From positions 194,209 through 258,208 of the forward strand of contig JACOXT010000003.1 of the NCBI GenBank assembly GCA_016182235.1: a stretch of 64,000 nt of DNA. Reading direction: 5' to 3'. Shown here in pieces: positions 8,183-45,784 of the stretch (position 1 is the stretch's first letter; the number at the start of each line of letters is the position of its first letter). Origin of the DNA: Candidatus Levyibacteriota bacterium (GTDB taxonomy: Bacteria; Patescibacteriota; Microgenomatia; Levybacterales; UBA12049). Made by a program: the position numbers and the translations under genes. Under the pieces are notes generated by a model. It had not been told where the DNA came from. It did not search any database and was given only the letters and a program-made list of their open reading frames with translations.

Positions 8183-8270
8183 CTGTTTTATAATTTTGAT
8201 CTATTGACTTCTAGTAATTTTCCTTGTATTTTTAACCTATATTTTCTGTCCAGGAAGGGGTGAGAGATAA

Positions 8271-8543
8271 TTGACAAAAAGAGATCTGATAGAGCTAGTT
8301 GCCAAGAAAGCAAACTTGACAAATAAAGCTGCAAGGGACGCTGTTTTAACTGTTATTAATTCAATACGCGACGCATTGAAGAGAAAGGAAAAAGTTGTTC
8401 TTACAGGATTTGGTACATTCTCTGTTCGTAAAAGAGTCGCTAGAATTGGCCGTAACCCAAAGACCGGAGAAAAGATAACAATCGCGGCAAGAAATGCTCC
8501 TGGATTTACTCCAGGAAAAACTCTTAAAAAAGTAGTTAGATGA
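8271..8543 (+). CDS. hup: DNA-binding protein HU
   Basis: 90 aa. 'GFGTFSVRKRVARIGRNPKTGEKITI' is the HU/IHF arm. TTG start with the SD-like GGAAGGGGTGAG 9 nt upstream. Confidence 0.9.
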   Translation: MTKRDLIELVAKKANLTNKAARDAVLTVINSIRDALKRKEKVVLTGFGTFSVRKRVARIGRNPKTGEKITIAARNAPGFTPGKTLKKVVR

Positions 8544-8546
8544 TGT

Positions 8547-8892
8547 CCTAGGAAGATAGTAAGCCAGATTCTGTTTGTCCCGCCAAAGGCGGGATAGATG
8601 CAATTTCTCTATGCCCTCAAACATCGATGCTTCCGTAAAGATGGTAATAACGCATCAGTCGGAGGTTGCAGCAGGTAGGATTGCCCGTTTCACTCCCACT
8701 CGTCTCTGTTGCTCTCAAGTTTTGTCAATTCAAAACATGCCTTTAGCTACATATGTGGGTAAATAGCTAAAGTACTAGCTATCTCTAGTTGGAGCTTACG
8801 CTCCATCCCCGTCTTTACACCTGTCTGGACTTTCCTCTCCCCATAGCTTTATGCGACGGGGAGTAGCATCTTTCTTCCTAGGGAAGAAATTA
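8547..8892 (-). ncRNA. rnpB: RNase P RNA (bacterial type A)
   Basis: The minus strand carries GAGAGGAAAGTCCAGAC (CR-I), GGGAGTGAAACGGGCAA (CR-IV-like) and ACAGAATCTGGCTTAC (CR-V). The terminal P1 pairing is CCTAGGAAGA (5') with TCTTCCTAGG (3'). The region is GC-enriched and has no real ORF. Confidence 0.85.
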
Positions 8893-8899
8893 TACCAAA

Positions 8900-11830
8900 T
8901 TATTTACTAGAAGTCGAACAAATAATTTTATATTCACAATTTTGGCAGAAAGCAGAATGAGAGCAGGAGAAATCACTTTTTTCTATTTCCTTAGCTTTTT
9001 CCATAAGGAGCTCTTTTGCTTTCTGCAAGTCTTCAGCACTCCTCATAGTTGTTAATTTTATATCTTTCTCTAAAAAATATAGTGAAAGTACTACATCTTC
9101 TGTTTTTCTATTAAGGGGCAGAGTTGGTACTTGCGTTGCCGCAAGAGCATAAATTGTAAGCTGCATGTTGTCTTTAAGCGAATCTTCCTCAGGAACATTA
9201 CCTCGGGTTTTGTAATCCAATATTTCTATTTTATTGTCATCTAGCCTATCGATCCTGTCGATTCTTCCTCCAATTTTAAGCCCGACACCTTTGCTGACAG
9301 AATTCTTTATCGGAAAGGTAAAAGGTAACTCTAAAGATAAAGGAAGATTCTTTTTATCCAAATTATTCTTGAGGTAATTTTCGATGATTTTCTCTCCAAT
9401 ATCTAATGCTTTTTTTTCGTGGGATTTACTTCCGTATCCTTCATTCACCCAATTTTTTTTAAGATAGAGAATTATGTCGCCTTTGGAGATCTCTTCTTTC
9501 CTTATTAGTTTTTGGTAAAGATCGCGAAGTGTTGCATGAATGCTAGTTCCAAAGCTAAGCGCTGAAGTTTGAGCGGTCGGAATTTTAAGAAGGTATTTTA
9601 GTTTATAATGCAACGGGCAGATTTCAAAAGTTTGAATTTGAGAATAAGACAAATAGGTTATAGGATTAGTGGATAGAATCTTCCGGCTGGCGGAAAAAAT
9701 AGAAGGTGGATTATTTATTTGTGACAAATCCAAAAAAGACAATTGCCCCATTTCCTTACTAGCCTTTCTTTTTTGAATAATTTTATTTACATAATCCAGG
9801 GGAAGCGTCTCGTATACAAAAGGGGATACTTTGCGTTCTCTTTTTCCTTCACCATAGTAATTCGCGCTACTTAGAAAAAGATTGTCTTTTGCTCTTGTTA
9901 GCGCTACATAAAAGAGTCTTCTTTCTTCTTCCAGATGATAATCTCCGGATGGAAGTATTTCTTTTATAAATGGTTTAGGAATTGGAATTTGTTCTTTTCG
10001 TTCGCGAGTCGGGAATCTTTGCGAAACAAGATTTACAACGAATACGATCGGGAATTCCAATCCTTTACTTGAATGGATTGTAAGAATGTTTACAGCATTG
10101 TTTTCCGTCCAATCAATATTCGTAGCAAGCGGACTTTCCCCCATTTGCATTGATAGGTCAATCCAATCTACAACAGAATAGATCGAAGCATCAGCGTGTT
10201 CGGCTTCATACGTTTTTAGTTTGTCGAAAAAACGGGCAATATTTTGAGATTTCCTTTCGTCCTCTATACTTTTTGACTTAAGATAGTTTTTGATTAAACC
10301 GCTATCTTCTAGGAAATAATAAAGTATTTGTCCGGCAGTATCTTTTGGAATACGTTTGATGTGGTTTTTGATCATTTTAGTGAACTTTTCTACTTTTTCC
10401 TTAAAATCTTTATTCATAAATGTTTCTTCAATCTTATTAAGCATTTCGAAAAGACTATAGTTTTTTCTTCTCGCAAAACTTAGCATAGATGCAATATCAA
10501 TTGGATCAAAATGGAATGAGCTAATATTCATAACCCTATATAATGAAGCCGAGTCTTCAGCATTGTATAAAACTTTAAGATAAGCAATTAGATCTTTGAT
10601 TTCATCTTGGTGAAAAAGCTGACCAGGTCCTAAGAACTGAAATGGAATGTTTTTTCGGGAAAATGCGCGCTGAAAAGGCTGAGAATGGTCGTTTGCCCGA
10701 ACAAGAATAGCAATATCTTTATATTGAACTTTCGAGTTTTTCTTCTCAATAAATTCAATAATCTTTTCAGAAACGAGATCTGCCTCGTCTTCAACTCTTT
10801 GGCCAAAAAGGAATTCGACTTTATCGCCTGCTATTCCTCGAACAGACTCTAATTTTTTATTTATATTCTCTTTTGCTTCAAGACGGTCCGGATTATTATT
10901 TTGAATCAGTCGATAGGAGGCGTTGAGAATTTCCTGAGTGGACCTATAATTCTTATTCAAGATGACAGTTTTACTTTTGGGGAAGTCACTCTTGAATTGA
11001 ATAATATTTGAAATTGCAGCGCCTCGCCAGCGATATATGGCCTGATCGTCGTCTCCAACCACAGTGATATTTTTCGAATCTCCGGCAAGGAGAATTACCA
11101 GTTGATTCTGAGCAAAATTGGTATCTTGAAATTCGTCAACAAGAATATATCTGAATTGGTCTTGATAAAGCTTTAAAATACTTAGTCTTTCTCTAAATAA
11201 CTTAAGGGTATTGGAAATTAAATCTGAAAAATCCATAACATTCTCTTTAGTCTTCAATTTCTCATACGCCATATAAGCATTTGCTAATTCTCTTATTTTT
11301 TTAATCTCTTCTGGTGGAATTTCGAATTTTCGAGAGTATTGTAGATATTCTTCAGGGGATACGTCTTCATCTTTAAGTCTACTGAAATGCTGTAGCATTC
11401 CTTCTAGAAATTTGTTGGGATTACCAAGCGGTCTAAAGTATGTAAAGTCAAACTCAAATAGATTTTTTCGAAGCAAGAGTACTGCTTCAGCTTCTGTTAG
11501 TAGTTTGTAAGAAGGGTTAAGGCCTATATGGATTGCTTCATTTTTCAGGATTCGATCACAAAAAGAGTGAAATGTTGAAATCCACAACTGTGTATAACCG
11601 TAAGGAAGCGCGATATCGACTCTTTCTTCCATTTCTCTTGCCGCCTTATCAGTAAATGTAAGAGCAAGAATTTGGGAAGGAGAAACATGTCTTTTAAGTA
11701 TTAAATATTTTATCCTTTCCGTTATTACTGTTGTTTTTCCTGTACCTGCTCCAGCTATAATTAGAAGAGGCCCCTTGTTATGTCTAACTGCCTTAAGCTG
11801 TTCAGAATTAAGAGTGGTATTTGTAATCAT
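8900..11830 (-). CDS. UvrD/PcrA-family helicase fused to C-terminal Cas4/AddB-like PD-(D/E)xK Fe-S nuclease
   Basis: 976 aa. Walker A 'AGAGTGKTT', 'LVDEFQDTN' and 'TIHSSKGLEF'. C-terminal 'QIQTFEICPLHYKLKY', 'ILDYKT', 'QLTIYALA' and terminal 'CSHSAFCQNCEYKIIC' give a four-Cys cluster pattern. Confidence 0.85.
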   Translation of the reverse strand: MITNTTLNSEQLKAVRHNKGPLLIIAGAGTGKTTVITERIKYLILKRHVSPSQILALTFTDKAAREMEERVDIALPYGYTQLWISTFHSFCDRILKNEAIHIGLNPSYKLLTEAEAVLLLRKNLFEFDFTYFRPLGNPNKFLEGMLQHFSRLKDEDVSPEEYLQYSRKFEIPPEEIKKIRELANAYMAYEKLKTKENVMDFSDLISNTLKLFRERLSILKLYQDQFRYILVDEFQDTNFAQNQLVILLAGDSKNITVVGDDDQAIYRWRGAAISNIIQFKSDFPKSKTVILNKNYRSTQEILNASYRLIQNNNPDRLEAKENINKKLESVRGIAGDKVEFLFGQRVEDEADLVSEKIIEFIEKKNSKVQYKDIAILVRANDHSQPFQRAFSRKNIPFQFLGPGQLFHQDEIKDLIAYLKVLYNAEDSASLYRVMNISSFHFDPIDIASMLSFARRKNYSLFEMLNKIEETFMNKDFKEKVEKFTKMIKNHIKRIPKDTAGQILYYFLEDSGLIKNYLKSKSIEDERKSQNIARFFDKLKTYEAEHADASIYSVVDWIDLSMQMGESPLATNIDWTENNAVNILTIHSSKGLEFPIVFVVNLVSQRFPTRERKEQIPIPKPFIKEILPSGDYHLEEERRLFYVALTRAKDNLFLSSANYYGEGKRERKVSPFVYETLPLDYVNKIIQKRKASKEMGQLSFLDLSQINNPPSIFSASRKILSTNPITYLSYSQIQTFEICPLHYKLKYLLKIPTAQTSALSFGTSIHATLRDLYQKLIRKEEISKGDIILYLKKNWVNEGYGSKSHEKKALDIGEKIIENYLKNNLDKKNLPLSLELPFTFPIKNSVSKGVGLKIGGRIDRIDRLDDNKIEILDYKTRGNVPEEDSLKDNMQLTIYALAATQVPTLPLNRKTEDVVLSLYFLEKDIKLTTMRSAEDLQKAKELLMEKAKEIEKSDFSCSHSAFCQNCEYKIICSTSSK

Positions 11831-11910: not shown

Positions 11911-12315
11911 CTACTCTACCGTAACGGTTCCTGTCTGGCTTGCATCGAGATGGTTATGGTAACCGTATATTCCTGTCTCGTCAAATACAAGCTGAACAGA
12001 TGAACTATCGCCAAATTCTCCAAGATTTATACGTGGATATATTTGATGAGTTGGATGATCGTCTGAGCTTACAGTCGCAGCTTTTCCGCTCTTATTAATC
12101 CAAATTACTCTTGATCCAGCTTTAACTGTTATATCTTTTGGTGTAAATCCACTTTCGTCCAGGCTGACGGTTATCGGCGGGTTTTCTTGTAAAATTTGTG
12201 CTGGGTTAGATTCTGTTTGGGGTTGCGTTCCCTGTTGATTGGACGTATTTCGTATTACAAGGAATGCGCCAACGACAACAACTAACCCTATGACTATTAA
12301 TAAAATCTTATTCAT
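11911..12315 (-). CDS. membrane-anchored cupredoxin-like domain protein (no Cys ligand)
   Basis: 134 aa with an N-terminal TM. 'ITVKAGSRVIWINKSGKAATVSSDDHPTH' and C-terminal 'GYHNHLDASQTGTVTVE' resemble the Cupredoxin_1 fold. The mature part has no cysteine. Confidence 0.5.
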   Translation of the reverse strand: MNKILLIVIGLVVVVGAFLVIRNTSNQQGTQPQTESNPAQILQENPPITVSLDESGFTPKDITVKAGSRVIWINKSGKAATVSSDDHPTHQIYPRINLGEFGDSSSVQLVFDETGIYGYHNHLDASQTGTVTVE

Positions 12316-12363: not shown

Positions 12364-13386
12364 TTAGGATTCTGGGAGTTGTTTTATTTCTTCAAGATTT
12401 TTTGTTGAATTAATCTTTTGGCCAATTTGCGCGAATCCCATATTGACGTTGGCGAATTGAGAGGAAGCGTTATTGATATGTTTGCCCAAGACTGCCATAT
12501 TTTCTTCAATTTTAATGTAGTCTATTTGTAATGATCGAAGCATTTTGAATATCTCTTTTGATCTAAGTTCGATTTTTTTGCCTTCGAATGACAATAGAAT
12601 TGTTTGAAGGTGGGTATATAGAGTGCTTGGAGAAACAACATAAACACGGAGTTTTTTTGCGTACTCCATTACATCCACCATATTGACAAGCTCATAATAA
12701 ACAGATTCGCTTGGTAAATACATTAATGCGAAATCCATAGTGCCTTCATCCGGCAAAACATATTTTTTCGCAATCGAATTTATATGTTTTTTGACGTCTT
12801 TGGTAAAATCTTTCTGTAAAGCATAATAATCTTCGTTTTTCGTCTGACATTTTAGCATGCGTTGGAAATTTTCCATTGGAAATTTGGAATCGATTGGCAA
12901 AATTCCCGCGTCTGTTTTTATTGCCGCATCTACTCTTTCTCCGGACTTAAACTGATATTGTAGGAAGAAACTATTTTTTGGAAACATCTGAGATATTAAA
13001 TCTTTAAGCACTTGCTCACCAATATTTCCTCTCAACTTTGGACTCTTAAGAAAATCTTGTAGGTCTTTCATGCTGCGTCCTATTTCACTCATTTGGCCAA
13101 CCTCTTTCCCAACATCTTTTATTACAAGAGCGGCACGATCCAATCTTTCGTTCAATTGTTTTGAGTTTTCTTGTAAAGTCTTTATCATGCTGTTTGATGA
13201 AGAATGTAGGGTCTCGTTTAATGTTTTGTTAGTTAGTTCCAAAGAGGTCTGCATGCTCTTTATCCATTCTAAAAGAGTTTTGTTTTCATTTGAGTTTTTG
13301 AGCTCTGAAAGCTTTTTACTTAGAAAAAAAATAACTACTCCAAAACAGAGAAGAATTAATATAACGATAGGAAGCGGATTTTCCAT
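12364..13386 (-). CDS. rmuC: DNA recombination protein RmuC
   Basis: N-terminal TM plus coiled coil. 'VDAAIKTDAGILPIDSKFPMENF' and 'ALMYLPSESVYYE' are typical RmuC blocks. Confidence 0.85.
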   Translation of the reverse strand: MENPLPIVILILLCFGVVIFFLSKKLSELKNSNENKTLLEWIKSMQTSLELTNKTLNETLHSSSNSMIKTLQENSKQLNERLDRAALVIKDVGKEVGQMSEIGRSMKDLQDFLKSPKLRGNIGEQVLKDLISQMFPKNSFFLQYQFKSGERVDAAIKTDAGILPIDSKFPMENFQRMLKCQTKNEDYYALQKDFTKDVKKHINSIAKKYVLPDEGTMDFALMYLPSESVYYELVNMVDVMEYAKKLRVYVVSPSTLYTHLQTILLSFEGKKIELRSKEIFKMLRSLQIDYIKIEENMAVLGKHINNASSQFANVNMGFAQIGQKINSTKNLEEIKQLPES

Positions 13387-22974: not shown

Positions 22975-23625
22975 TTAGTTAAATAAGGATCTAATTATAG
23001 AAAAAGCATTATTGGCATCTTTATCTTCAAATACAAGAGTAAATTCAGAAATAGTAGAAATAATCTCAATAATATTTACGCCTTCCCAAGCAAGCGACTT
23101 TAAGAAAAAATAAAAGATTCCGGGAGTAAAAGTTGCTTCTGTTGGAAGTCTAATCGTGATTAAGGAAAGGCCGTGAAATTCAGACACTATAGTTTTATCT
23201 TTTAGTCGTTTCTTGATATCTGTATAAAGATTTCTACTTGCAACAATAGTTGTTTCCAACGCCCCTTCAGTCAAAGAAAAAAAATACTCTCTTTTTAATC
23301 CAGATAGCTCTAGTTGATTAGCATATTTATTGATTAAGTTTTTGGAATGATTTATGTTGATGATCATTAAATTTGATCTCATTATCATTTCTGGTGAATC
23401 TTTGAAAATATTTTTATAACTAAAGCTTGGTTTAGGAGTTTCTAGAAGTCGATTTATAGCCATAATAATGGCTGATTTACTCGTTTTTTTAATCAACATC
23501 TCTTCAAGCTCTGGTTTTATATAAAGAGCAAGCGCTGAGATATTAATAATTCCTTTTTCAAGAGCTTCCTGTAAATATCGCGATCGCTTTATAATTTTTT
23601 GTGTACCCTCACTGACGGTAATCAT
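22975..23625 (-). CDS. hypothetical protein with possible C-terminal ACT-like domain
   Basis: 216-aa ORF convergent with greA. The C-terminal 'LITIRLP...GIFYFFLKSLAWEGVNIIEIISTISEFTLVFED' resembles ACT-type repeats. This is a weak call. Confidence 0.4.
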   Translation of the reverse strand: MITVSEGTQKIIKRSRYLQEALEKGIINISALALYIKPELEEMLIKKTSKSAIIMAINRLLETPKPSFSYKNIFKDSPEMIMRSNLMIININHSKNLINKYANQLELSGLKREYFFSLTEGALETTIVASRNLYTDIKKRLKDKTIVSEFHGLSLITIRLPTEATFTPGIFYFFLKSLAWEGVNIIEIISTISEFTLVFEDKDANNAFSIIRSLFN

Positions 23626-24917: not shown

Positions 24918-25883
24918 ATGGCAGAAATAGAAAATAAAATTCTGGTAACCGGAGCATTCGGACAAATTGGATCAGAATTAGTTCCTGCGCTTCAGCAAAA
25001 ACATGGTAAAGATAATGTCGTTGCAATGGGACACAGGAATATTCCTTCCCGTTTTGATGGAATTCTTGAAAAAGCAGATCCTAGAAATATATCAGATATT
25101 GAAAAAATCATAAAAGATCATAATATACTTACAATTTATCACCTTGTTTCTCTTCTTTCCGTAACAGGAGAAAAAGACCCTGGATTAACTTGGGATATTA
25201 ACATGAATGGTCTTATCAATATTCTTGATCTTGCTGTTAAATATCAGAACAGAGTATTTTGGCCAAGCTCAATAGCGGCATTTGGCCCTACAACTCCGCA
25301 GGACAACACTGCGCAAAAAACAGTTCTGGAGCCAACTACAATGTATGGAGCAACCAAAGTAGCAGGAGAAAACCTGTGCAGATATTATTTTATTACGTAC
25401 GGTTTGGATATAAGATCTATAAGATACCCAGGATTGATTAGCTGGAAAGCAGAACCCGGAGGAGGAACTACGGATTATGCTGTAGCTATTTTTTATGACG
25501 GATTAAGAAAGGGAGAATATAACTGTTTTGTTAGGAAAGATACAGTTTTGCCTATGATGTATATGGATGATGCAATTCGCGGGACAGTTGAGCTTATGGA
25601 TGCTGATTTAGATGTTGCTAAAAGAAGAGAGGCAAGAGATTGGGATAGCTATAATTTAGCCGCAATTAGTTTTCAAGCTCAGGAGCTTGCAGAAGAACTA
25701 AAAAAACACATTCCGAATCTTAAGGTTGAATATAATCCAGATCACAGACAAGCAATTGCTGATTCCTGGCCTAACTCAATTGACGATTCGTTAGCAAGAA
25801 GTGAGTGGGGATGGAAACATGAATTTGATCTTCCCAAGATGACAAAAGTCATGGTTGACAACCTCAGGAAAAATTCGATATAA
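24918..25883 (+). CDS. tdh: L-threonine 3-dehydrogenase, SDR/epimerase-type
   Basis: 'ILVTGAFGQIGSEL', 'YGATKVAGE' (YxxxK) and 'TDYAVAIF' are typical of the short-chain TDH found next to kbl. Confidence 0.8.
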   Translation: MAEIENKILVTGAFGQIGSELVPALQQKHGKDNVVAMGHRNIPSRFDGILEKADPRNISDIEKIIKDHNILTIYHLVSLLSVTGEKDPGLTWDINMNGLINILDLAVKYQNRVFWPSSIAAFGPTTPQDNTAQKTVLEPTTMYGATKVAGENLCRYYFITYGLDIRSIRYPGLISWKAEPGGGTTDYAVAIFYDGLRKGEYNCFVRKDTVLPMMYMDDAIRGTVELMDADLDVAKRREARDWDSYNLAAISFQAQELAEELKKHIPNLKVEYNPDHRQAIADSWPNSIDDSLARSEWGWKHEFDLPKMTKVMVDNLRKNSI

Positions 25884-25957: not shown

Positions 25958-27409
25958 ATGAAGGATGCGGATTTTAGGAAGGTTCGTTTGGAGAAACTTG
26001 AAAAAATAAAAGCATCGGGTTGGAATCCATATGCCTCCTCTTTTGATAAAAAGCGAACAATTGATGATTGTTTAAAAAGCGAGGGAAAAATCGTTAAAAC
26101 AGCCGGGAGAGTTTTTTCGTATAGGGAGCATGGAAATATTGCCTTTGCGGATCTTAAAGATGAGACAGGAAAAATACAACTATTCTTCCAGAAAAAACTT
26201 TTAGGAGAAAATCAATATAAAAATCTTAAACTTTTGGATATAGGAGATTTTGTTGGAGTTGAGGGAGAAGTTGTCAAAACAACTGCCGGTGAAATTTCTA
26301 TTGCGCCAACTTCTTATACGCTTCTTAGTAAATCATTATTACCACTCCCAAGTGAATGGTTTGGTCTAAAAGATGTAGAAACACGTTTTAGGCAAAGATA
26401 TCTTGATCTTCTTCTTAATCCAGAAATCCGTCAGAGATTTAATATTAGAACTAAAATGGTAAGCGGAGTTAGAGAGTATTTGGATAATTTGGGATTTTGG
26501 GAAGTTGAGACCCCAACATTACAACCTTTGTATGGAGGAGCAAATGCCAAGCCTTTTAAAACTCATGTAAATGCACTAGATCGGGATTTTTATTTGAGAA
26601 TAGCAGATGAACTTTATCTTAAGCGGCTTATTGTTGGTGGGTATGAAAGAGTATATGAAATTTGCAAAGATTTTAGAAATGAAGGAATAGATAATTCTCA
26701 CTTCCCTGAATTTACAATGATCGAATGGTATGAAGCATATGCTGATTATCAAAAGGTAATGGATGTTGCTGAAGGAATGCTTAAGCATTTAGCAAAAAAA
26801 CTTTTCGGACATACAACTCTTCAGATTGATAACAAGAAAATAGATATTGGAAAAAAATGGCCAAGAATAGAAATGTCCGTGATTCTAAAAGAAAAATTGG
26901 GTTTGGATATAGATAAAGAAACTGGGGAGAGTTTAACTGTCTATGCTAGAAAACATTGCAAGGAAATGCAATTAGTTGGGGGAGAAACAAAAGGACAGCT
27001 TATCTTTGCGATTTTTGAACATTTGATTCCCAAGAAAATACAGGAACCAACATGGATTATAGATTATCCGCAAGATGTAAGTCCACTGTCGAAAGCGCAT
27101 AGAGACAAAATTGGATGGGTAGAGAGGTTTGAGGGGTATATTGGCGGTAAGGAAATTTGTGATGGATGGTCAGAGCTCACCGATCCAATGGAGCAAAGAG
27201 CAAGATTTACAAAAGATACTGAAATCGCAAGAAAAGATAAAGAAGAGGGTCAGCATGTGGATGAGGATTTTTTGACTGCCATGGAATATGGAATGCCGCC
27301 TCTTGGAGGAATAGGAATAGGAATAGATAGGCTAGCTATGTTTTTCACAAACACATGGGTGATAAAAGAAGTAATGCTTTTTCCAGCTCTTCGTCCAGAG
27401 GGAAAATAA
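25958..27409 (+). CDS. lysS: lysine--tRNA ligase (class II)
   Basis: OB-fold 'GRVFSYREHGNIAFADLKD', motif 2 'FRNEGIDNSHFPEFTMIEWY' and motif 3 'GGIGIGIDRLAMF'. Confidence 0.95.
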   Translation: MKDADFRKVRLEKLEKIKASGWNPYASSFDKKRTIDDCLKSEGKIVKTAGRVFSYREHGNIAFADLKDETGKIQLFFQKKLLGENQYKNLKLLDIGDFVGVEGEVVKTTAGEISIAPTSYTLLSKSLLPLPSEWFGLKDVETRFRQRYLDLLLNPEIRQRFNIRTKMVSGVREYLDNLGFWEVETPTLQPLYGGANAKPFKTHVNALDRDFYLRIADELYLKRLIVGGYERVYEICKDFRNEGIDNSHFPEFTMIEWYEAYADYQKVMDVAEGMLKHLAKKLFGHTTLQIDNKKIDIGKKWPRIEMSVILKEKLGLDIDKETGESLTVYARKHCKEMQLVGGETKGQLIFAIFEHLIPKKIQEPTWIIDYPQDVSPLSKAHRDKIGWVERFEGYIGGKEICDGWSELTDPMEQRARFTKDTEIARKDKEEGQHVDEDFLTAMEYGMPPLGGIGIGIDRLAMFFTNTWVIKEVMLFPALRPEGK

Positions 27410-28020
27410 TGAAAAGGCTTCTTATTGCTACTACTAACCCTGGGAAACTGAGGGAGTATAGAGAATTTTTGTCTGATTTAAACTTAAAATTACTATCGCT
27501 TAGTGATGTAGGCATTACCGATGATATAGAGGAAACTGGAAAAACATATAAAGAAAATTCTCAAAAGAAGGCGTTGTTTTATGCGAAAAGAAGTGGATCA
27601 CCAGCGATATCCGACGATGGGGGAATAGAAATATCAGCCTTGAACAATGAGCCAGGGATTAAAAGCCGAAGATGGCTTGGGTATAACTCAACAGACGAAG
27701 GTTTGATTAAGCACATGATGAAGGTTTCAAAACAACTTCCAGAGAATAATAGGAATGCTGTTTTTAAATTGGTTGTTTCTTTAGCATTGCCAAATGGTAA
27801 AGTATATGCTAGCGAAGGAAGAGTTGAAGGAATAATTGCAAAAGACCCACACATGAAGCTTCTGCATGGCTATCCATACCGATCGTTTTTTTATCTTCCA
27901 GATATTCAAAAATATTATCACGAAAGCGAGTTGACCAGAGATGAAATGAGGAAGTATAATCATAGATATAAAGCAATTCAGAAATTAAAACCAATTATTA
28001 TAAAAGAATTAATTGACTAA
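27409..28020 (+). CDS. rdgB: non-canonical purine NTP pyrophosphatase (RdgB/HAM1)
   Basis: The ATG at 27409 overlaps the lysS stop (TAATG). 'LLIATTNPGKLREY' and 'ISDDGGIEI' are present. The upstream extension in the track lies inside lysS. Confidence 0.85.
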   Translation: MKRLLIATTNPGKLREYREFLSDLNLKLLSLSDVGITDDIEETGKTYKENSQKKALFYAKRSGSPAISDDGGIEISALNNEPGIKSRRWLGYNSTDEGLIKHMMKVSKQLPENNRNAVFKLVVSLALPNGKVYASEGRVEGIIAKDPHMKLLHGYPYRSFFYLPDIQKYYHESELTRDEMRKYNHRYKAIQKLKPIIIKELID

Positions 28021-28088
28021 CGAATTAGCGGGTTAACGTAAGAAAATTCGTTAATTCTTTAACTCGTTAATTAAATAATTGAAGCAGT

Positions 28089-29354
28089 ATGTTAGATATA
28101 AAATTTATTAGGGAAAATCCACAAGTTGTTCAAAATGCTGCAAAAAATAAAGGGGTAGATGTTGATATTAATTACCTTCTTGAAATAGATTCCAAATACA
28201 GAGAACTTTCTTTGGCTGTTCAAAAACTTAGAGAAGAAAGGAATGCATTAACATCTGGAATAAAGGGTAAGCCAGCTAGTGAACAAATCGAAAAAGGCAA
28301 AGTCTTAAAAGAAAGACTTGAGAAAGAAGAACACGCATTAAATTCAGTTCAGGAAGAGCTTAACGAATGGTTATTAAAAATTCCAAATATTCCGGCAGAT
28401 GATGTTCCAATCGGGAAAGATGAGACGGGGAATAAAGAGATAAGGAAAATAGGCGGTATCCCCAGGTTTTCATTTAAAGCCAAATCCCATGATGAGCTGG
28501 CTCTGTCTTTGGATTTATACGATACAAAACATGCAACAAAGATTGCCGGCACACGCGGGTATTTTCTTAAGAACGAATTGGTTCTTCTTGAGCAGGGAGT
28601 ACTGCAGCTCGCATTAGAGTTTATGATTAAGCAAGGTTTTACTCCCATGACTGTTCCTTGGATTGTTAATAAAGATGCATTGTGGGGAACAGGATATTTC
28701 CCATGGGGGATTGAAGATCATTATACGACTCAAGATGGACAGGGTTTGATCGGCACGTCAGAAGTTTCACTAACCGCATATCATCAAGGCGAAGTTCTGA
28801 ATGAGAAAGACCTGCCGATAAAACTTGTTGGTATATCGCCATGTTTTAGACGAGAGGTAGGAAGTTATGGTAAGGATACAAAAGGATTTATTAGGGTTCA
28901 TCAATTTAACAAAGTTGAACAAGTAGTTTTATCTGTGGCAGATGAACAAAACTCGCGAGAATGGCATGAAAAAATGTTGGAGTATTCAGAGAAAATTCTT
29001 CAGGACTTAAAACTTCCTTATAGAGTAATGTTAATGTGCACTGGAGATATGGGAGCAGGGCAACGAAAAAAATATGATATTGAAACATGGTTTCCGTCAC
29101 AAAATAAATATCGGGAAACACATTCTGCGAGTTATTTCAACGACTTTCAGGCCCGGCGTTTAAATATAAGATATAGAACTAAAAACGGCAACACAAAGTA
29201 TGTATATACTCTTAATAATACTGTAATTGCAACCCCGAGGATTCTTGCGGCGATACTCGAAAACTATCAGGAAATCGATGGATCTGTAATAATCCCAAAA
29301 GTTCTACGAAAATATTTTAATAATTTTGATAAAATTTCTCCAAAAAAACAATAG
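28089..29354 (+). CDS. serS: serine--tRNA ligase
   Basis: 'MLDIKFIRENP', 'GTRGYFLKNE', 'CFRREVGSYGKDTKGFIRVHQFNKVE' and 'LNNTVIATPR' are present. Confidence 0.95.
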   Translation: MLDIKFIRENPQVVQNAAKNKGVDVDINYLLEIDSKYRELSLAVQKLREERNALTSGIKGKPASEQIEKGKVLKERLEKEEHALNSVQEELNEWLLKIPNIPADDVPIGKDETGNKEIRKIGGIPRFSFKAKSHDELALSLDLYDTKHATKIAGTRGYFLKNELVLLEQGVLQLALEFMIKQGFTPMTVPWIVNKDALWGTGYFPWGIEDHYTTQDGQGLIGTSEVSLTAYHQGEVLNEKDLPIKLVGISPCFRREVGSYGKDTKGFIRVHQFNKVEQVVLSVADEQNSREWHEKMLEYSEKILQDLKLPYRVMLMCTGDMGAGQRKKYDIETWFPSQNKYRETHSASYFNDFQARRLNIRYRTKNGNTKYVYTLNNTVIATPRILAAILENYQEIDGSVIIPKVLRKYFNNFDKISPKKQ

Positions 29355-29420
29355 TTTGGCTTCCATTTTTCTTCCTTATTTAAAGACCTAAACTGTCATT
29401 TTTGAAGCAGAGTATTTTAC

Positions 29421-29463
29421 TTGACAAATATTGCAAAATCATCAACTATTTAAATGGTATTAT
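29421..29463 (+). promoter_or_regulatory. candidate promoter of the secA leader
   Basis: TTGACA at 29421-29426 with a weak AACTAT 17 nt downstream. Alternatively there is an extended -10, TGgTATTAT, at 29455-29463. Confidence 0.4.
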
Positions 29464-29493
29464 TTTTTTTGGCGAAAGGGGGTGAAAAATAAA

Positions 29494-29526
29494 ATGGCGA
29501 AGAAAAAAAAGAGAAAGAAGAGATAA
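29494..29526 (+). CDS. candidate 10-codon leader ORF (MAKKKKRKKR)
   Basis: ATG GCG AAG AAA AAA AAG AGA AAG AAG AGA TAA, preceded by the near-consensus SD AAGGGGGTGA (29476-29485) with an 8-nt spacer. Confidence 0.35.
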   Translation: MAKKKKRKKR

Positions 29527-29568
29527 TTGGTAAGCTATTTGGAGCGTTACCAATTGATCAGTTGGTAA

Positions 29569-29596
29569 TCCCCCACCGTACGGTGGGGGATTTTTT
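29569..29596 (+). terminator. strong intrinsic terminator 19 nt upstream of the secA ATG
   Basis: TCCCCCACCG-TA-CGGTGGGGGA perfect 10-bp stem (29569-29590), then T6 (29591-29596). Confidence 0.8.
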
Positions 29597-29615
29597 ATGG
29601 TAAAATTACAGTAAC

Positions 29616-32324
29616 ATGTTTAATTTAATTACCAAATTTTTTGATTCAAACGAAAAAGAGATAAACAAACTTAGACCAAAAGTTGAGGAAATTAATTCTC
29701 TTGAAGAAAAAACAAAAAAACTAAAAGACAAAGATTTTCCTAAAAAGACAAAATTCTTCAAAGAAGAATTATCGAACGGAACACCATTGGATGCTATATT
29801 GCCAGAGGCTTTTGCTCTTGTTCGAGAAGCCGCAAGAAGAACAATTGGGCAGCGTCACTTCGATGTCCAGCTTATGGCGGGGATAACTCTTGCAAATGGA
29901 AAAATTGCGGAGCAAAAAACAGGAGAAGGAAAAACACTTTCTGCTATTCCCGCATTATATCTTCACAGTCTGACAGGTAAAAGTGTGCATTTGGTAACAG
30001 TGAATGACTATCTTGCAAGACGCGACGCGGGATGGATGGGACCAGTATTTAATTTTCTAGGAGTTACAGTTTCATCAATCATTAATGAGCAGTCTTTCAT
30101 TTTTGATCCCCAATTTGCAAATAAAGACTCTATGGATTTTAGACTTTCTCATTTAAGGCAGGTGACAAGACGTGAAGCATACAGGGCAGATGTTGTATAT
30201 GGGATAAATTCGGAGTTTGGTTTTGATTATTTAAGGGATAATATGGCTCAGGACATAGAAGAAACGGTTCAGCGCGGCTATTATTATGCGGTGGTAGATG
30301 AGGTGGACTCGGTTCTAATTGATGAAGCACGAACTCCACACATAATTTCGGCTCCAGACGAATCCCCGGCTCAGAAATATTATGAATATGCAGCACTCAT
30401 TGACAAATTAAATCCAGATATAGATTACAAAGTTGATGAGAAACTAAGGACTGCACATCTGACAGATCATGGAATTGGTAAGATCGAGAGACTATACGGA
30501 ATTAGCAATATTTACGAGAAAGATTTCAATACGGTTTATCATTTGGAAGCAGCCCTAAAAGCACGAACGTTATTCAAAAAGGAAAAAGATTATATTGTCA
30601 AAGATAATCAGGTTATTTTAGTTGATGAGTTTACCGGTAGGTTAATGATGGGAAGAAGATTGTCAGAAGGTTTACATCAGGCAATTGAAGCAAAGGAGCA
30701 AGTGCCAATCCAAAGAGAATCAAAGACTTTGGCAACTGTATCGCTTCAGAATTATTTCAGGATGTACGAGCGTTTGTCAGGAATGACTGGTACTGCGGTG
30801 ACAGAAGCGCAAGAATTCCATAAGATTTATAACTTAAGTGTAGTTGTCATTCCAACAAATAAAGATATGATTCGGGAAGACAACCAGGACTTGGTTTATA
30901 AAACAGGTCGGGCGAAGTTGTCCGCGGTCGCAAATGAAATAGAAAAAGCATATAAGAAAGGACAACCTGTTTTGGTCGGAACAACCTCAATTGAGAAAAA
31001 TGAACTTATTTCGGAGCTTCTAAGACGAAGAGGAATAAAACATGAAGTTTTAAATGCTAAAAATCATGAGCAAGAAGCAAGGATAATCTCGATGGCTGGA
31101 GAGGAAAAAGCAGTCACAGTTGCGACAAATATGGCTGGCCGGGGAGTAGACATTATTTTAGGAGGAGACACCCCAAAATCTAAAGATGGTTCTGCAAAGC
31201 AGAATTCTCCTGAATGGAGAGCATGGGAGAAAGAGCATGATAAAGTTGTGAAGTTAGGAGGATTATATGTTATAGGTACGGAGAGACATGAATCTCGAAG
31301 AATAGATAACCAGCTTCGAGGACGAAGCGGTCGCCAAGGAGATCCGGGGGCTTCCCGTTTTTTTGTATCTTTAGATGATGAGATAATGCGTCTTTTTGGA
31401 GGAGATAAAATATCTGGTGTCATGACAAGATTTAATATGCCTGAAGATGTGCCCCTGCAGCACATGATCGTCTCCAAAGCCATAGAGCAGGCTCAAACTA
31501 AAGTTGAAGGATTTAATTTTGATATCAGGAAACATCTCGTTGACTATGATGATGTACTGAATAAGCAAAGGGAAATAATATACAAAAGAAGAAGAAGGAT
31601 TTTGGAAGTAAGTACGGATGGGTCTTTGGAAAGCGAAGTGATTGAAAAAATTGACGCGAGCATTGCAAATATAGTCAATATTCGTTTGAATGAAATTTAT
31701 GACGATAAAACGTCAAGTACTAAAAAAATAATTGATGATTTTACAACCATTGTCCCTTTTGATGAGGCCTCGAAAGAGCAATTGATTAAGCAAGTTGAAA
31801 TCTCAAATTTAACCCAGGAAAAGATAGATTTTCTAACGAAAATTTCTCACGATATTTATGATGGGCGGAAAAAACAAATTGGAAAAGAACTCATGAGTAG
31901 AATTGAGAGGTTTGTTATGCTGTCAGTTATCGATAGTCTGTGGACTGATCATTTGGATGCAGTCGAAAACCTGCGAGGCGGGATTGGACTTCGGGGCTAT
32001 GGACAAAGAGATCCGTTGGTTGAATATAAAAATGAAGCATACAAAATGTTCGAACAACTAATTAGCGGGATCGATGATGCTATAGTACATAGAATTTACA
32101 AGATTCAAGTACAAGAAACACCAGCGATGCCAACGCACCGGCATCTTACAGCCAGACCCGCAGGAGCAGATGTTGGAATATCAGAAACTTCAAACAATCA
32201 AAAAACAAATAGCGCAAAACATGCGACAGGCGACATGAATATTACAAGAAAAAAATTGGGAAGAAATGATCCTTGCTGGTGCGGAAGCGGAAAAAAATAC
32301 AAGCGATGCCACTATCCGAATTGA
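29616..32324 (+). CDS. secA: preprotein translocase ATPase SecA
   Basis: 902 aa. 'MAGITLANGKIAEQKTGEGKT', 'VDEVDSVLIDEARTP', 'TNMAGRGVDI', 'RIDNQLRGRSGRQGDPG' and the C-terminal zinc motif 'CWCGSGKKYKRCH'. Confidence 0.97.
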   Translation: MFNLITKFFDSNEKEINKLRPKVEEINSLEEKTKKLKDKDFPKKTKFFKEELSNGTPLDAILPEAFALVREAARRTIGQRHFDVQLMAGITLANGKIAEQKTGEGKTLSAIPALYLHSLTGKSVHLVTVNDYLARRDAGWMGPVFNFLGVTVSSIINEQSFIFDPQFANKDSMDFRLSHLRQVTRREAYRADVVYGINSEFGFDYLRDNMAQDIEETVQRGYYYAVVDEVDSVLIDEARTPHIISAPDESPAQKYYEYAALIDKLNPDIDYKVDEKLRTAHLTDHGIGKIERLYGISNIYEKDFNTVYHLEAALKARTLFKKEKDYIVKDNQVILVDEFTGRLMMGRRLSEGLHQAIEAKEQVPIQRESKTLATVSLQNYFRMYERLSGMTGTAVTEAQEFHKIYNLSVVVIPTNKDMIREDNQDLVYKTGRAKLSAVANEIEKAYKKGQPVLVGTTSIEKNELISELLRRRGIKHEVLNAKNHEQEARIISMAGEEKAVTVATNMAGRGVDIILGGDTPKSKDGSAKQNSPEWRAWEKEHDKVVKLGGLYVIGTERHESRRIDNQLRGRSGRQGDPGASRFFVSLDDEIMRLFGGDKISGVMTRFNMPEDVPLQHMIVSKAIEQAQTKVEGFNFDIRKHLVDYDDVLNKQREIIYKRRRRILEVSTDGSLESEVIEKIDASIANIVNIRLNEIYDDKTSSTKKIIDDFTTIVPFDEASKEQLIKQVEISNLTQEKIDFLTKISHDIYDGRKKQIGKELMSRIERFVMLSVIDSLWTDHLDAVENLRGGIGLRGYGQRDPLVEYKNEAYKMFEQLISGIDDAIVHRIYKIQVQETPAMPTHRHLTARPAGADVGISETSNNQKTNSAKHATGDMNITRKKLGRNDPCWCGSGKKYKRCHYPN

Positions 32325-32368
32325 AATCATAAATTGACAACTTTTTAGCATAGTATTAGTATGTTTTC

Positions 32369-33166
32369 ATGAAAGAGATAAGAGGAGGTGAATTTAATCC
32401 CAATGAACAATCATTTAATGGAAGCCTAGAAAATCTAAAAGGAGCGCTAGCGAAACCTATTCATGAATTCCGCACTTCGCTTCAGGAACAAGCTCGTAAT
32501 TTGCATGAGGAAGCAGAGATAAAAACAACAGGTTTTTTTAGGAGAAAAAAATCCTTATTGGTAAAATGGTCTTCACGTGACTATGAATTAGGTTTGAGTT
32601 ATAGCTCAATTTTAAAAATGCCATATCCCCAACCCATCGATGAGAGTACGCCCTTAGAATCTATTCGGATAAGTTCTTATGAATCAAATGTTAAGTCATC
32701 TGGAGATTCTGATGCCAAACCAGTTGGAATTCTTTCCAAATTTAATAATGATGGAATACGTTTACAAATAATGTGGAGAGAAGACATGCCTTCAATTCTA
32801 GAAAAAATATTGAGTAGAAATAATGCCCTTTTAGGTCTTATTGAAAAATTAAATAATAACGGAATCTATAGTAGATCTGCCTCTCGAGAATCTAATTTTT
32901 GGGGCGGAGGGAACAAAAGGACAATGGGGGTTTTTATTTCGGAAAAATCAGCAGGAATATATTTTATATCCAACGCTAAAACTCATTCTTATGATCATAC
33001 CCCAATATATTTTTTAGATGAGGAAGTTGAAGAATTTATATATGATTATAGTGATTTTGATAAATCTCCAGGTACTCCCGATAAATTTTCTATGGCGGAA
33101 TTTGAGCAAGTTACTCGGGATTTGCTCGGAGTGGCTACTTATGCAACCAAGCCTACTTCGGCTTAA
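32369..33166 (+). CDS. hypothetical protein (265 aa)
   Basis: Long ORF with coding-like composition. No motif recognised. Confidence 0.5.
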   Translation: MKEIRGGEFNPNEQSFNGSLENLKGALAKPIHEFRTSLQEQARNLHEEAEIKTTGFFRRKKSLLVKWSSRDYELGLSYSSILKMPYPQPIDESTPLESIRISSYESNVKSSGDSDAKPVGILSKFNNDGIRLQIMWREDMPSILEKILSRNNALLGLIEKLNNNGIYSRSASRESNFWGGGNKRTMGVFISEKSAGIYFISNAKTHSYDHTPIYFLDEEVEEFIYDYSDFDKSPGTPDKFSMAEFEQVTRDLLGVATYATKPTSA

Positions 33167-44229: not shown

Positions 44230-44583
44230 TTATCTTTTTTCCCTGAGGTACTTCTCTTCAATTTTTCTTAGTTTATCTCCTACGGCACGGTCTACATCAA
44301 CGCCCGCGGCGATCGCCAATTGCATCGCAGTAATAATAACATCCGCGAACTCTTCATACATGTTTCTCCGGTCAAACTTTTGCAGTTTTGCCCGCCTTTG
44401 AAGCTTGAGTATTGAGAGTATATCGTTACATAATTCTCCAACTTCTTCATTTAGTTTTACTGTTTTTGTTAGGATTTCTTTTTCGGTTTGGGAATAAAGT
44501 TTATATTGCGGCCGAGTTACTTGGTTTAATATTTTTATTTTTTCCTGAAGATTCTTTAAGTTCATGCAGTTATTATAATACAA
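44230..44583 (-). CDS. MazG-like nucleotide pyrophosphohydrolase
   Basis: 'KLNEEVGELCNDIL' and 'EEFADVIITAMQLA' are the EExxE and ExxAD helices. Confidence 0.7.
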   Translation of the reverse strand: MYYNNCMNLKNLQEKIKILNQVTRPQYKLYSQTEKEILTKTVKLNEEVGELCNDILSILKLQRRAKLQKFDRRNMYEEFADVIITAMQLAIAAGVDVDRAVGDKLRKIEEKYLREKR

Positions 44584-45343
44584 AAAAAGCGAAAATTACA
44601 GCCAAGACAATTCTATATATCCCAAAAGGAATAAAGGTATGATTCTTAATAAATGCGAGAAAAAATTTCATAGACAAAATGGCAACAAAGAAAGATCCGA
44701 TAAGCCCAATTACCAAGAGAGAATATTCATATGCTGAAAAAGAAAAATCACTTTTCACAATATCCAGCCCTGCGGCTGCAAGGAGAGTTGGACTCGCAAT
44801 CAAAAAGGAGAATTCCACCGCTACCTTTCTTTTTGCTCCTAAAAATAATGCTCCCATAATTGTTGACGCTGCACGCGAAACTCCGGGAATAATTGCTATC
44901 GACTGACAACAGCCAATAAGGAATGACTGGGTGAGAGTCAGTTGTTCGATCTTATCCACATGGTGTTTTTTCTCTTTATAAATGAACTCAAGGATAATAA
45001 GCAAAATTCCCCCAACAAATAATGAGATTAGAGTTAGGATAGTGTTGCCTATTAAATAGCTTTTTATAAATTTAAAAAGCACTAAGCCAAAAAATGCTGT
45101 GGGCATTAATGCAACCAACATTTGCTTCCAAATAGTATTTCTTACAAAAAGTCTTCTCCAGTACAAAAAAACAACTCCTGCTATCGCGCCCAGTTGAATA
45201 ATAATTTCAAAGCTTTTTACGAAGTCTGTTTGTTGTATTTTTAATATTGTTGAAGTAAGAATCAAGTGTCCGGTAGAAGAAATCGGAAGAAATTCTGTTA
45301 GACCTTCTACAATAGATAAGATAGTAGCTTGGAGATAGTCCAC
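44573..45343 (-). CDS. uppP: undecaprenyl-diphosphate phosphatase
   Basis: 'VEGLTEFLPISSTGHL' and 'PGVSRAASTI' are present. The protein is polytopic. Confidence 0.93.
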   Translation of the reverse strand: MDYLQATILSIVEGLTEFLPISSTGHLILTSTILKIQQTDFVKSFEIIIQLGAIAGVVFLYWRRLFVRNTIWKQMLVALMPTAFFGLVLFKFIKSYLIGNTILTLISLFVGGILLIILEFIYKEKKHHVDKIEQLTLTQSFLIGCCQSIAIIPGVSRAASTIMGALFLGAKRKVAVEFSFLIASPTLLAAAGLDIVKSDFSFSAYEYSLLVIGLIGSFFVAILSMKFFLAFIKNHTFIPFGIYRIVLAVIFAFFVL

Positions 45344-45394: not shown

Positions 45395-45784
45395 ATGGAT
45401 AACGAAAATGGAGTCCAGAAGACATGGAATAAAAAAAGAATTTTTATAGCGATTTTTTTAATAATATTATTAGGAATTGGAACATATTTTTTAATAACAA
45501 AAATTTTGGAAGGAAAAATAAATTTTTTTAACGCAAAGCCTTCTGAGTCTCCAAAGTCTGTTAAGGGAATAAGCGTTGTGGAGGACAAACCCTCTTTTGA
45601 TATAGAGAAGGCACTTAAAGAAAAAATTGACGAGTTGAAAAAGGAGGCATCAAAAATAGATGTCGAGGAAATAGCATCATCTTCTCCTCAGATACAAAAA
45701 TTGATAAAAGATCTTAATTCTCTTAAAGAGTATCCGACTAATCAGGCAAAGGAGATTTGTCAGAAGGTCTGTAGCGGTTTATAA
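45395..45784 (+). CDS. hypothetical membrane-anchored protein
   Basis: 129 aa with one TM. No motif recognised. Confidence 0.5.

Follow-up and report, generated by a model that had tools for sequence, protein, structure and literature searches.

We analyzed the spacer between serS and secA in a 64,000-nt stretch of DNA (the window) from Candidatus Levybacteria, which belong to the Microgenomates of the Candidate Phyla Radiation (CPR). To our knowledge, nothing is known experimentally about Levybacteria. The spacer contains a compact arrangement that we refer to as the unit, which consists of a promoter (P1), a Shine-Dalgarno (SD) sequence, a poly-lysine micro-open reading frame (micro-ORF), a hairpin (hairpin 1), a palindrome and a terminator, all located 5' of secA. 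An initial annotation of this DNA had described the SD sequence, the micro-ORF, the terminator and three complementary 7-mers (segments A, B and C), and had interpreted them as a leader that controls read-through into secA. The palindrome that is made up of segments B and C had been overlooked. The features of the locus are as follows.

28089..29354, + strand: serS (seryl-tRNA synthetase; Pfam Seryl_tRNA_N and tRNA-synt_2b), the upstream neighbor
29387..29408, + strand: blocks conserved across relatives, CCTAAAC followed by TTTGAAGC at 29401-08
29421..29449, + strand: predicted promoter P1, with -35 TTGACA at 29421-26, a 17-nt spacer and -10 AACTAT at 29444-49, assigned from the consensus of relatives
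29476..29485, + strand: SD sequence AAGGGGGTGA, for which relatives have AAGGAGGTGAT
29494..29526, + strand: micro-ORF encoding MAKKKKRKKR, 10 codons plus TAA, with homologous ORFs in relatives
29524..29556, + strand: hairpin 1 (A:B), with the stop codon in the base of its stem, from the minimum-free-energy fold
29547..29568, no strand assigned: palindrome TTACCAATTGATCAGTTGGTAA, 22 bp, composed of segments B and C
29567..29596, + strand: intrinsic terminator AATCCCCCACC-GTAC-GGTGGGGGATT plus T6, from a terminator scan
29598..29606, + strand: predicted promoter P2 of secA, an extended -10 (TG-g-TAAAAT) that ends 9 nt before the ATG
29616..32324, + strand: secA, 902 amino acids, matching a database SecA named Candidatus Levybacteria with 100% identity along the full length

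All sequence elements of the initial annotation can be located exactly as they were listed. Besides the terminator and the secA ATG, this applies to TTGACA at 29421-26 and TGGTATTAT at 29455-63, to the near-consensus SD sequence at 29476-85, to the micro-ORF at 29494-29526 with its A8 run, and to segments A (TTGGTAA, 29527-33), B (TTACCAA, 29547-53) and C (TTGGTAA, 29562-68).

Relatives of the locus were collected by two scans and one motif-independent search. A SecA-based scan of species-representative genomes yielded about 25 Microgenomates loci, three of which (L001, L002 and L008) bear the unit, and a scan of metagenomes for the core of the palindrome yielded at least 120 stretches. Levybacteria-rich groundwater from the Hainich wells H41 and H51 is the source of several of the contigs. 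Loci with an SD-like sequence and a Lys/Arg-rich ORF just 5' of the palindrome were assigned to the family. This gave 97 loci among the matches listed (the palindrome-core scan together with L001, L002, L008 and the window), and hence a family of at least 97. Two further candidates were dropped as chance matches, and the other palindrome-core matches in the metagenome scan are occurrences unrelated to the unit. For the motif-independent sample, eight SecA homologues with 72-85% identity were looked up without reference to the palindrome. The unit, including the exact palindrome, is present in 7/7 of these loci that have enough upstream DNA, and the contig of the eighth homologue breaks off inside the terminator. 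No gene is called in the spacer before secA in any contig of this sample. The unit is thus conserved 5' of secA, as the initial annotation had placed it.

The unit is nevertheless absent from L003, L004 and L005, in which serS is followed directly by secA despite equally close SecA identity. Among unit-bearing loci, SecA identity is 67-88% over the first 400 residues and SerS identity is 42-57%, two close relatives excepted. Judging from these comparisons, the unit-bearing loci are one clade, though not a shallow one.

Coding signature and promoter of the micro-ORF

The homologous micro-ORFs comprise 73 unique sequences of 9-34 codons. After the initiating Met, Lys accounts for 69% of the residues of their products, Ala for 15% and Arg for 7%, and Thr, Val, Pro and Gly occur to some extent; MPVKKTVKKTVKKAAKKTVKKTVAKKKKK is an example of the longer products. 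Not one of about 760 body codons is acidic and no in-frame stop occurs. When the same 73 sequences are read in the other frames, frame 1 has 16 stops and 7% acidic residues, and frame 2 has 22 stops and 49% Glu/Asp. Residue 2 is Ala or Pro in 72/73 micro-ORFs, and the non-purine codons (GCA, GTA, ACA, CGA and CAC) are always in phase. The C-termini vary (KKR, KRK, KKK and others), Pro and Gly are almost absent, and composition alone is conserved. Given that the frame, the start codon, residue 2 and the stop codon are kept, and that acidic codons are missing, the comparison identifies the micro-ORF as a real coding gene that is under selection at the protein level. This coding signature favors what the initial annotation had offered as a fallback, namely that the peptide itself could be functional.

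The initial annotation had also singled out the A8 run as a feature that would perturb elongation. Such runs are avoided across the family: Lys is encoded by AAG in 66% of cases in the micro-ORFs, as compared with 24% in 14 long genes of the window, and the longest A-run does not exceed 5 in 46/73 micro-ORFs. Since AAG is favored and A-runs are short in the family, the A8 run of the window is an exception, and codon choice indicates that slippery A-tracts are selected against in the micro-ORF rather than used. Two loci, L105 and L132, have a purine run that is one nucleotide shorter, so that the ORF reads MAKKRRRRNSW... and its stop is a TAA inside segment A; the product stays basic, with AAG shifted to AGA. 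The difference reflects either genuine slippage or an error in the assembly. A third locus (L203, about 1080-1130) combines a degenerate SD sequence (AATGAGTTGAGACTACA-ATG) and a mutated segment A (TTGGAAAG) with an intact ORF, palindrome and terminator. This copy may be decaying or differently expressed.

Of the 97 family loci, only one lacks the SD sequence before the micro-ORF. Its form is nearly always (A)AGGAGGTGA(T), and the distance from GGAGG to the ATG is 8-11 nt in the four loci that were read by hand. In the window as a whole, an SD-like motif precedes only 5/57 ORF starts. Among the very few strong SD sequences in the window is that of a cupredoxin-like gene (11911-12315, - strand), whose SD sequence and spacer, GGGGGGTGAAAAATAT-ATG, are almost identical to the GGGGGTGAAAAATAAA-ATG of the micro-ORF. 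In 1.38 Mb of compared DNA, an SD sequence followed by a poly-K/R micro-ORF occurs 88 times, and the palindrome lies 3' of 86 of these; as to paralogues, the only occurrences without a palindrome among the 88 are two weak ones. Searches of Pfam and NCBIfam with the long micro-ORF variants produced no match at E <= 10.

The promoter assignment rests on alignments of the relatives, in which the TTGACA of P1 is near-invariant. The hexamer exactly 17 nt after it has the form CAnnAT (C 88%, A 96%, A 94% and T 96% among 84 unique relatives), and the corresponding hexamer in the window is AACTAT. The initial annotation had instead paired TTGACA with TGgTATTAT as its -10, a pairing that must be given up, since the two lie 31 nt apart and the conserved partner is AACTAT at 17 nt. 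Transcription from P1 is predicted to start near 29456. Farther upstream, the order of elements is GATTTTTG...CAATCTAAA...TTTGAAGC, followed by a spacer of about 12 nt and then CTTGACAAA; the conserved blocks at 29387..29408 presumably serve as an UP-like element or as a site for a factor. The combination TTGAAGC-N8-16-TTGACA occurs once per locus and in the unit only, and no second P1-type promoter was found in these loci. The 5' untranslated region (UTR) of the micro-gene ranges from about 30 to 100 nt across the family, and in one sub-clade (L085, L086, L105, L107, L109, L130, L170, L173, L179 and others) the interval from P1 to the SD sequence holds an additional conserved hairpin, ...attgccgttcacctttatttttaaagtgagcgaaatt....

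Hairpin 1, the terminator and the palindrome

Folding of the leader region gives a z of -4.2, and 0/200 shuffled sequences fold as well. Like the occurrence of the palindrome and the recurrence of the whole arrangement in the family, this is more than chance would give. Segment A is the minimum-free-energy partner of segment B in 46/59 unique relatives. In these 46 hairpins, the variable A:B pair that lies inside the palindrome is A-U in 32, G-C in 8 and G.U in 6, with no mismatches, and the upper stem of hairpin 1 uses several pair types across relatives. The loop accepts insertions of 8-30 nt, with the loop ATTTGGAG recurring. This covariation marks hairpin A:B as a real RNA structure. For the B:C pairing, the counts at the variable pair are U.G 33, U-A 19 and C.A 10, obtained with a search pattern that would miss the doubly changed C-G form. 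The alternative pairing of the three 7-mers of the initial annotation is not conserved in relatives: B and C are conserved as the palindrome, but A is missing in L008, L146 and L195, and B is duplicated in one clade (L107, L121, L157, L178, L188 and L206). The duplication appears in the 3' UTR of the micro-gene as ...TTACCAATT-ATTACCAATTGATCAATTGGTA, and it allows A:B and the palindrome hairpin B':C to form at once.

The terminator has a stem of 11 pairs, 7 of them G-C (29567-92), and a T-run at 29591-96. The terminators are uniformly strong among relatives, in which the median of the stem energy is -19 kcal/mol and 83/87 have 5 or more T within 8 nt. In the initial annotation, stalling or termination on the polybasic ORF was proposed to select between A:B and B:C pairing and thereby to set the read-through that feeds secA. 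The classical order of an attenuator is indeed seen here, with a leader-like ORF first, then the three mutually complementary 7-mers and last a terminator, and the arrangement is conserved 5' of secA. However, the computed pair probability of the terminator is 1.0 without any block and 0.999 with either A or C blocked, so the pairing of the three segments would not set its efficiency. Segment C lies outside the G+C stem and has only 2-3 A-U pairs in common with the terminator, which forms at about 1.0 either way, and a ribosome at the stop codon, about 40 nt 5' of the terminator stem, cannot reach that stem. Absence of A or duplication of B in several lineages, selection against A-runs, a conserved leaderless promoter predicted for secA itself (described below) and the lack of any connection between secA and the supply of Lys or Arg likewise stand against an attenuator. 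We therefore regard this model as contradicted by the sequence evidence and as very improbable. The analogy to SecM, MifM and VemP drawn in the initial annotation is not supported, as the unit lacks a signal or transmembrane (TM) segment, an arrest motif and a 30-residue spacer, and there is no SD sequence to unmask. We also considered a Lys-sensing leader, since a class II aminoacyl-tRNA synthetase of the Lys/Asp/Asn type is encoded two genes upstream; this was rejected because the micro-ORF lies downstream of that operon and because A-runs and stalling features are avoided.

The palindrome TTACCAATTGATCAGTTGGTAA is present in a single copy in the window, in which 0.03 matches would be expected. 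Its 20-bp core, TACCAATTGATCA(A/G)TTGGTA, is identical in 10/10 unit loci that were sampled through SecA rather than through the motif, and the sequence around the core varies. This constancy suggests that a factor recognizes the core, whether in the form of duplex DNA or of a hairpin.

Given the conservation at the 3' end, we considered whether the P1 transcript could act as a small RNA, either non-coding or with a dual function. In that case, hairpin 1, the single-stranded box GAUCA(A/G)UUGGUA and the terminator would make up its active part, and the ORF would be incidental or would serve to stabilize or remodel the RNA. A hairpin, a single-stranded region, a terminator and a U-tail are the typical layout of such an RNA, and the 3' region is more conserved in nucleotides than the ORF, with an invariant palindrome and a recurring hairpin 1 loop. 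Against this, the ORF is under strong protein-level selection, with no acidic codons and with its frame and SD sequence kept, and the box is fully paired in the duplicated-B clade. No Rfam family matches: a local search at E <= 10 gave sub-threshold chance matches only, the best being PyrR with 29.8 bits as compared with a gathering score of 54, and a search of the whole window at the gathering score gave tRNA-Pro only. The one candidate target that was tested, pairing of the palindrome with the codons for Phe-Asp-Ser-Asn (FDSN) in secA mRNA (UUUGAUUCAAA), is a near match, but it was rejected because the third position of the Ser codon is free (TCC 30, TCA 28, TCT 19 and TCG 12). Taken together, these points make a small RNA an improbable account of the unit. 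Codons 5-7 of secA (29629-29635) also contain TTACCAA, which equals segment B and is complementary to A and C. Relatives do not share this heptamer, and the match is probably coincidental.

The predicted secA promoter and the linkage of the unit to secA

The initial annotation had stated that there was no room for a promoter before secA and that secA must be expressed by read-through. The first statement overlooked TG-g-TAAAAT at 29598-29606. The N-terminus of SecA, MFNLITKFFDSNEKEI, lines up with the N-termini of relatives. A box of the form TAnn[A/T]T ends 4-13 nt before the secA ATG in 84/91 loci, usually with T[A/G]TG before it. The distance from box to ATG is 6 nt in 35 loci (the mode), 7 nt in 11, 8 nt in 10 and 9 nt in 18, so that 74/91 loci fall at 6-9 nt. 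A -10 that ends 6 nt before an ATG puts the transcription start on the A of that ATG. The same -10 box precedes secA in relatives that lack the unit (L003, L004, L005 and others). In L118, L119 and L147, which have extra DNA between the unit and secA, a -10-like box lies beside the secA ATG and not beside the terminator. Because secA has its own conserved -10 box at a leaderless distance, and keeps it where the unit is absent, it has no need of read-through; it appears to start from its own leaderless promoter behind the terminator.

The same layout is common in the window. TAnAAT is found 5-11 nt before the start at 12/57 ORFs, as compared with 1.0 expected, and a TG extension is present in 8 of the 12. 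Examples are 8900-11830 (- strand), 12364-13386 (- strand), 22975-23625 (- strand) and 24918-25883 (+ strand), and both genes of a divergent pair, 44573-45343 (- strand) and 45395-45784 (+ strand), have the leaderless layout. Leaderless transcription thus seems to be a major mode of expression in this Levybacteria genome, which is largely devoid of SD sequences. Our search of the literature found no description of leaderless genes in Patescibacteria. The ORF that follows secA (32369-33166, no Pfam match) also has a leaderless-type start, in the region 32334-32400, which reads TTGACA, 17 nt, TAGTAT, 6 nt and ATG; codons 5-8 of this ORF contain AGGAGGTGA.

The gene upstream of the unit is serS in 68/85 related loci. 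In the window, serS ends a cluster (25958-29354) that also includes the genes for a 483-amino-acid class II aminoacyl-tRNA synthetase (Lys/Asp/Asn type) and a Ham1-family protein. Since the terminator scan revealed no terminator-like site between serS and the unit, read-through from serS may stop at the terminator of the micro-gene, and serS transcripts may end there too.

Downstream, the unit is followed by secA in 94/97 family loci, the remaining three ending before any gene is readable, and in 7 further loci sampled through SecA. The linkage holds as well in five loci whose nearest upstream ORF did not match SerS. Since the unit-bearing loci all belong to one fairly tight clade, the linkage may be mere inherited synteny. 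In L154, secA (7408-10104) lies about 400 nt beyond the terminator of the unit, and the insertion (6990-7410) holds a short ORF starting MKKFIILLFGLF. In L004 (about 2440-2500), the unit is absent, yet GTGAGGGGTTTTTTTTGAGGCTGA... directly follows the serS stop codon. This remnant corresponds to the 3' half of a terminator of the unit type, together with the spacer that leads up to the secA -10, so L004 looks like a deletion derivative from which the unit was removed and in which secA and its -10 were left. Such a derivative implies that the unit is dispensable.

The linkage raises the possibility that the unit serves secA as a dedicated cis-acting control module, given that a leaderless mRNA lacks a 5' UTR through which it could be controlled. 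In one version, the palindrome would serve P2 as an operator or as an activator site. In another, P2 would be modulated by P1 activity together with the terminator and the palindrome, through interference, a roadblock or hand-over of polymerase or ribosomes, with translation of the micro-ORF toggling between A:B and B:C. The occurrence of secA 3' of the unit throughout the loci just described, including those with an upstream ORF unlike SerS, would fit such a module, as would the invariance of the palindrome in the independently sampled loci. The position of the stop codon directly against segment A, which means that a terminating ribosome must open A:B, is also in keeping with it, but the mutual exclusion of A:B and B:C is gone in the duplicated-B clade. 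Also against it, P2 and secA are unchanged in relatives without the unit or with the unit deleted, and a purely cis-acting device would have no need of a peptide whose charge is under selection. The spacing of the palindrome from P2 has been taken into account as well. The distance from the palindrome to the secA -10 is 42 to 78 bp, with outliers beyond 100, and clusters near 45, 56 and 67 bp; the best period is 11-12 bp, with a naive p of about 1e-7 at 11.5, but the clusters coincide with clades and the periodicity is therefore not independent. For this reason we did not count helical phasing as evidence. Distances as long as 100-400 bp are also tolerated. On balance, a dedicated cis-acting module seems to us unlikely, if a good deal less so than an attenuator.

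A probable autonomous micro-gene and its relation to known systems

We favor the interpretation that the locus holds an unannotated poly-Lys micro-gene with an invariant 3' palindrome, which a terminator insulates from a leaderless secA promoter, and we assign this interpretation a probability of roughly 60%. In this interpretation, the sigma-70-type promoter P1, with its TTGACA, 17-nt spacer, CAnnAT -10 and upstream blocks, would drive synthesis of an RNA of about 140 nt. The long SD sequence, which is exceptional in this genome, would load ribosomes onto the 10-codon ORF. The product, MAKKKKRKKR, would be a selected polycationic peptide, members of the family being built from Lys, Arg, Ala, Thr and Val and lacking acidic residues throughout. 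At the 3' end, the stop codon would lie in the base of A:B, the invariant palindrome would come next, and the strong intrinsic terminator would finish the RNA. The secA gene would be transcribed separately from the extended -10 promoter that abuts the terminator, giving a leaderless mRNA, and the role of the terminator would be to keep transcription from P1, and probably read-through from serS too, off the secA promoter. We infer that nucleic acid, the ribosome or an anionic membrane is the target of the polycationic peptide, and that the palindrome is the recognition site for a trans-acting and probably dimeric factor. The components do not all carry the same certainty: comparison of the loci shows the coding signature and the anatomy of promoter and terminator, and it shows that hairpin 1 covaries and that the terminator does not depend on A/B/C pairing, whereas the transcription start sites and the functions of peptide and palindrome are inferred.

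Several considerations weigh against an autonomous micro-gene. The unit lies 5' of secA wherever the downstream DNA is readable, and a free-standing gene might be expected sometimes to move. The clusters at 45, 56 and 67 bp could mean that the palindrome is constrained to one face of the helix and is a DNA site that acts on P2. The invariant palindrome is left without an explanation by the micro-gene model, and both the transcription start sites and the efficiency of termination are predictions.

A bolder proposal, which we put forward as speculative and judge to be rather unlikely, is that the unit is a new kind of control device specific to a leaderless gene, or else that its product is a new, tiny, ribosome- or nucleoid-bound polycation of the CPR. 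As a device, the unit would supply regulation that an mRNA without a 5' UTR cannot carry, by placing it in an upstream mini transcription unit. Translation of the poly-Lys ORF would open A:B, and the palindrome would then form as RNA, or would be a DNA site on one face of the helix; a dedicated dimeric factor would then set the activity of the abutting secA promoter. If true, either a new principle of secA control or a new polycationic cell component would be relevant to protein export, to small proteins and to CPR biology.

Returning to the micro-gene that we favor, a gene of 9-34 codons under clear purifying selection would rank among the shortest bacterial genes with convincing conservation, and it is absent from all gene calls of the contigs examined. 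The locus also displays two modes of initiation together, a strong SD sequence for the micro-gene and a leaderless layout, with the -10 at the ATG, for secA and many other genes. Our literature search found nothing on poly-lysine ORFs before secA.

The position of the micro-ORF invites comparison with SecM, MifM, VemP, ApcA, ApdA, ApdP and CliM, with which it has in common that a small ORF lies immediately 5' of a gene for the export machinery and is conserved with it. Substrates that monitor Sec or YidC begin with a signal or TM segment at the N-terminus, which a spacer longer than 30 residues separates from a conserved C-terminal arrest motif, and they unmask an SD sequence on the same mRNA (PMC10987492). 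In contrast, the micro-gene peptide consists of 9-34 residues of Lys, Arg and Ala with no hydrophobic stretch, and no conserved arrest motif (RAGP, RAPP or similar) is found in the micro-gene peptides. A strong terminator separates the micro-ORF from secA, which has no SD sequence and has its own predicted leaderless promoter.

A second comparison is with the attenuators of the trp, his, leu and pheA type, which the unit resembles in that a short leader-like ORF dominated by one amino acid is followed in series by complementary segments and by a terminator. In those attenuators, antiterminator and terminator have one strand in common, and the regulated genes lack promoters of their own. In the unit, however, segment C lies outside the G+C stem, the terminator is insensitive to A/B/C pairing, and secA has its own predicted promoter. 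An interpretation of the locus as SecM-like or as an attenuator should not spread further.

As for secA itself, leaderless genes with a -10 a few nucleotides before the start codon are known from Actinobacteria, Deinococcus and archaea. In the window, secA and many other genes likewise have TAnAAT, often TG-extended, 6-10 nt before the ATG and no SD sequence.

For the peptide, the nearest systems in kind, by analogy, are the very small polybasic ribosome-bound proteins, among them bL37 and bS22 (Actinobacteria, Bacteroidota), bTHX and eL41 (PMC5876184, PMC10081302). Like these, the product of the micro-gene is free-standing, very short, extremely basic and long overlooked by annotation. The resemblance is one of composition only, no homology being shown and the long variants having no Pfam or NCBIfam match. 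The micro-gene is also far more variable in length (9-34 residues), and none of the genes for bL37, bS22, bTHX and eL41 has an invariant 3' palindrome or a fixed place before secA. By this analogy, binding to rRNA as a polycation is a plausible role for the micro-gene peptide.

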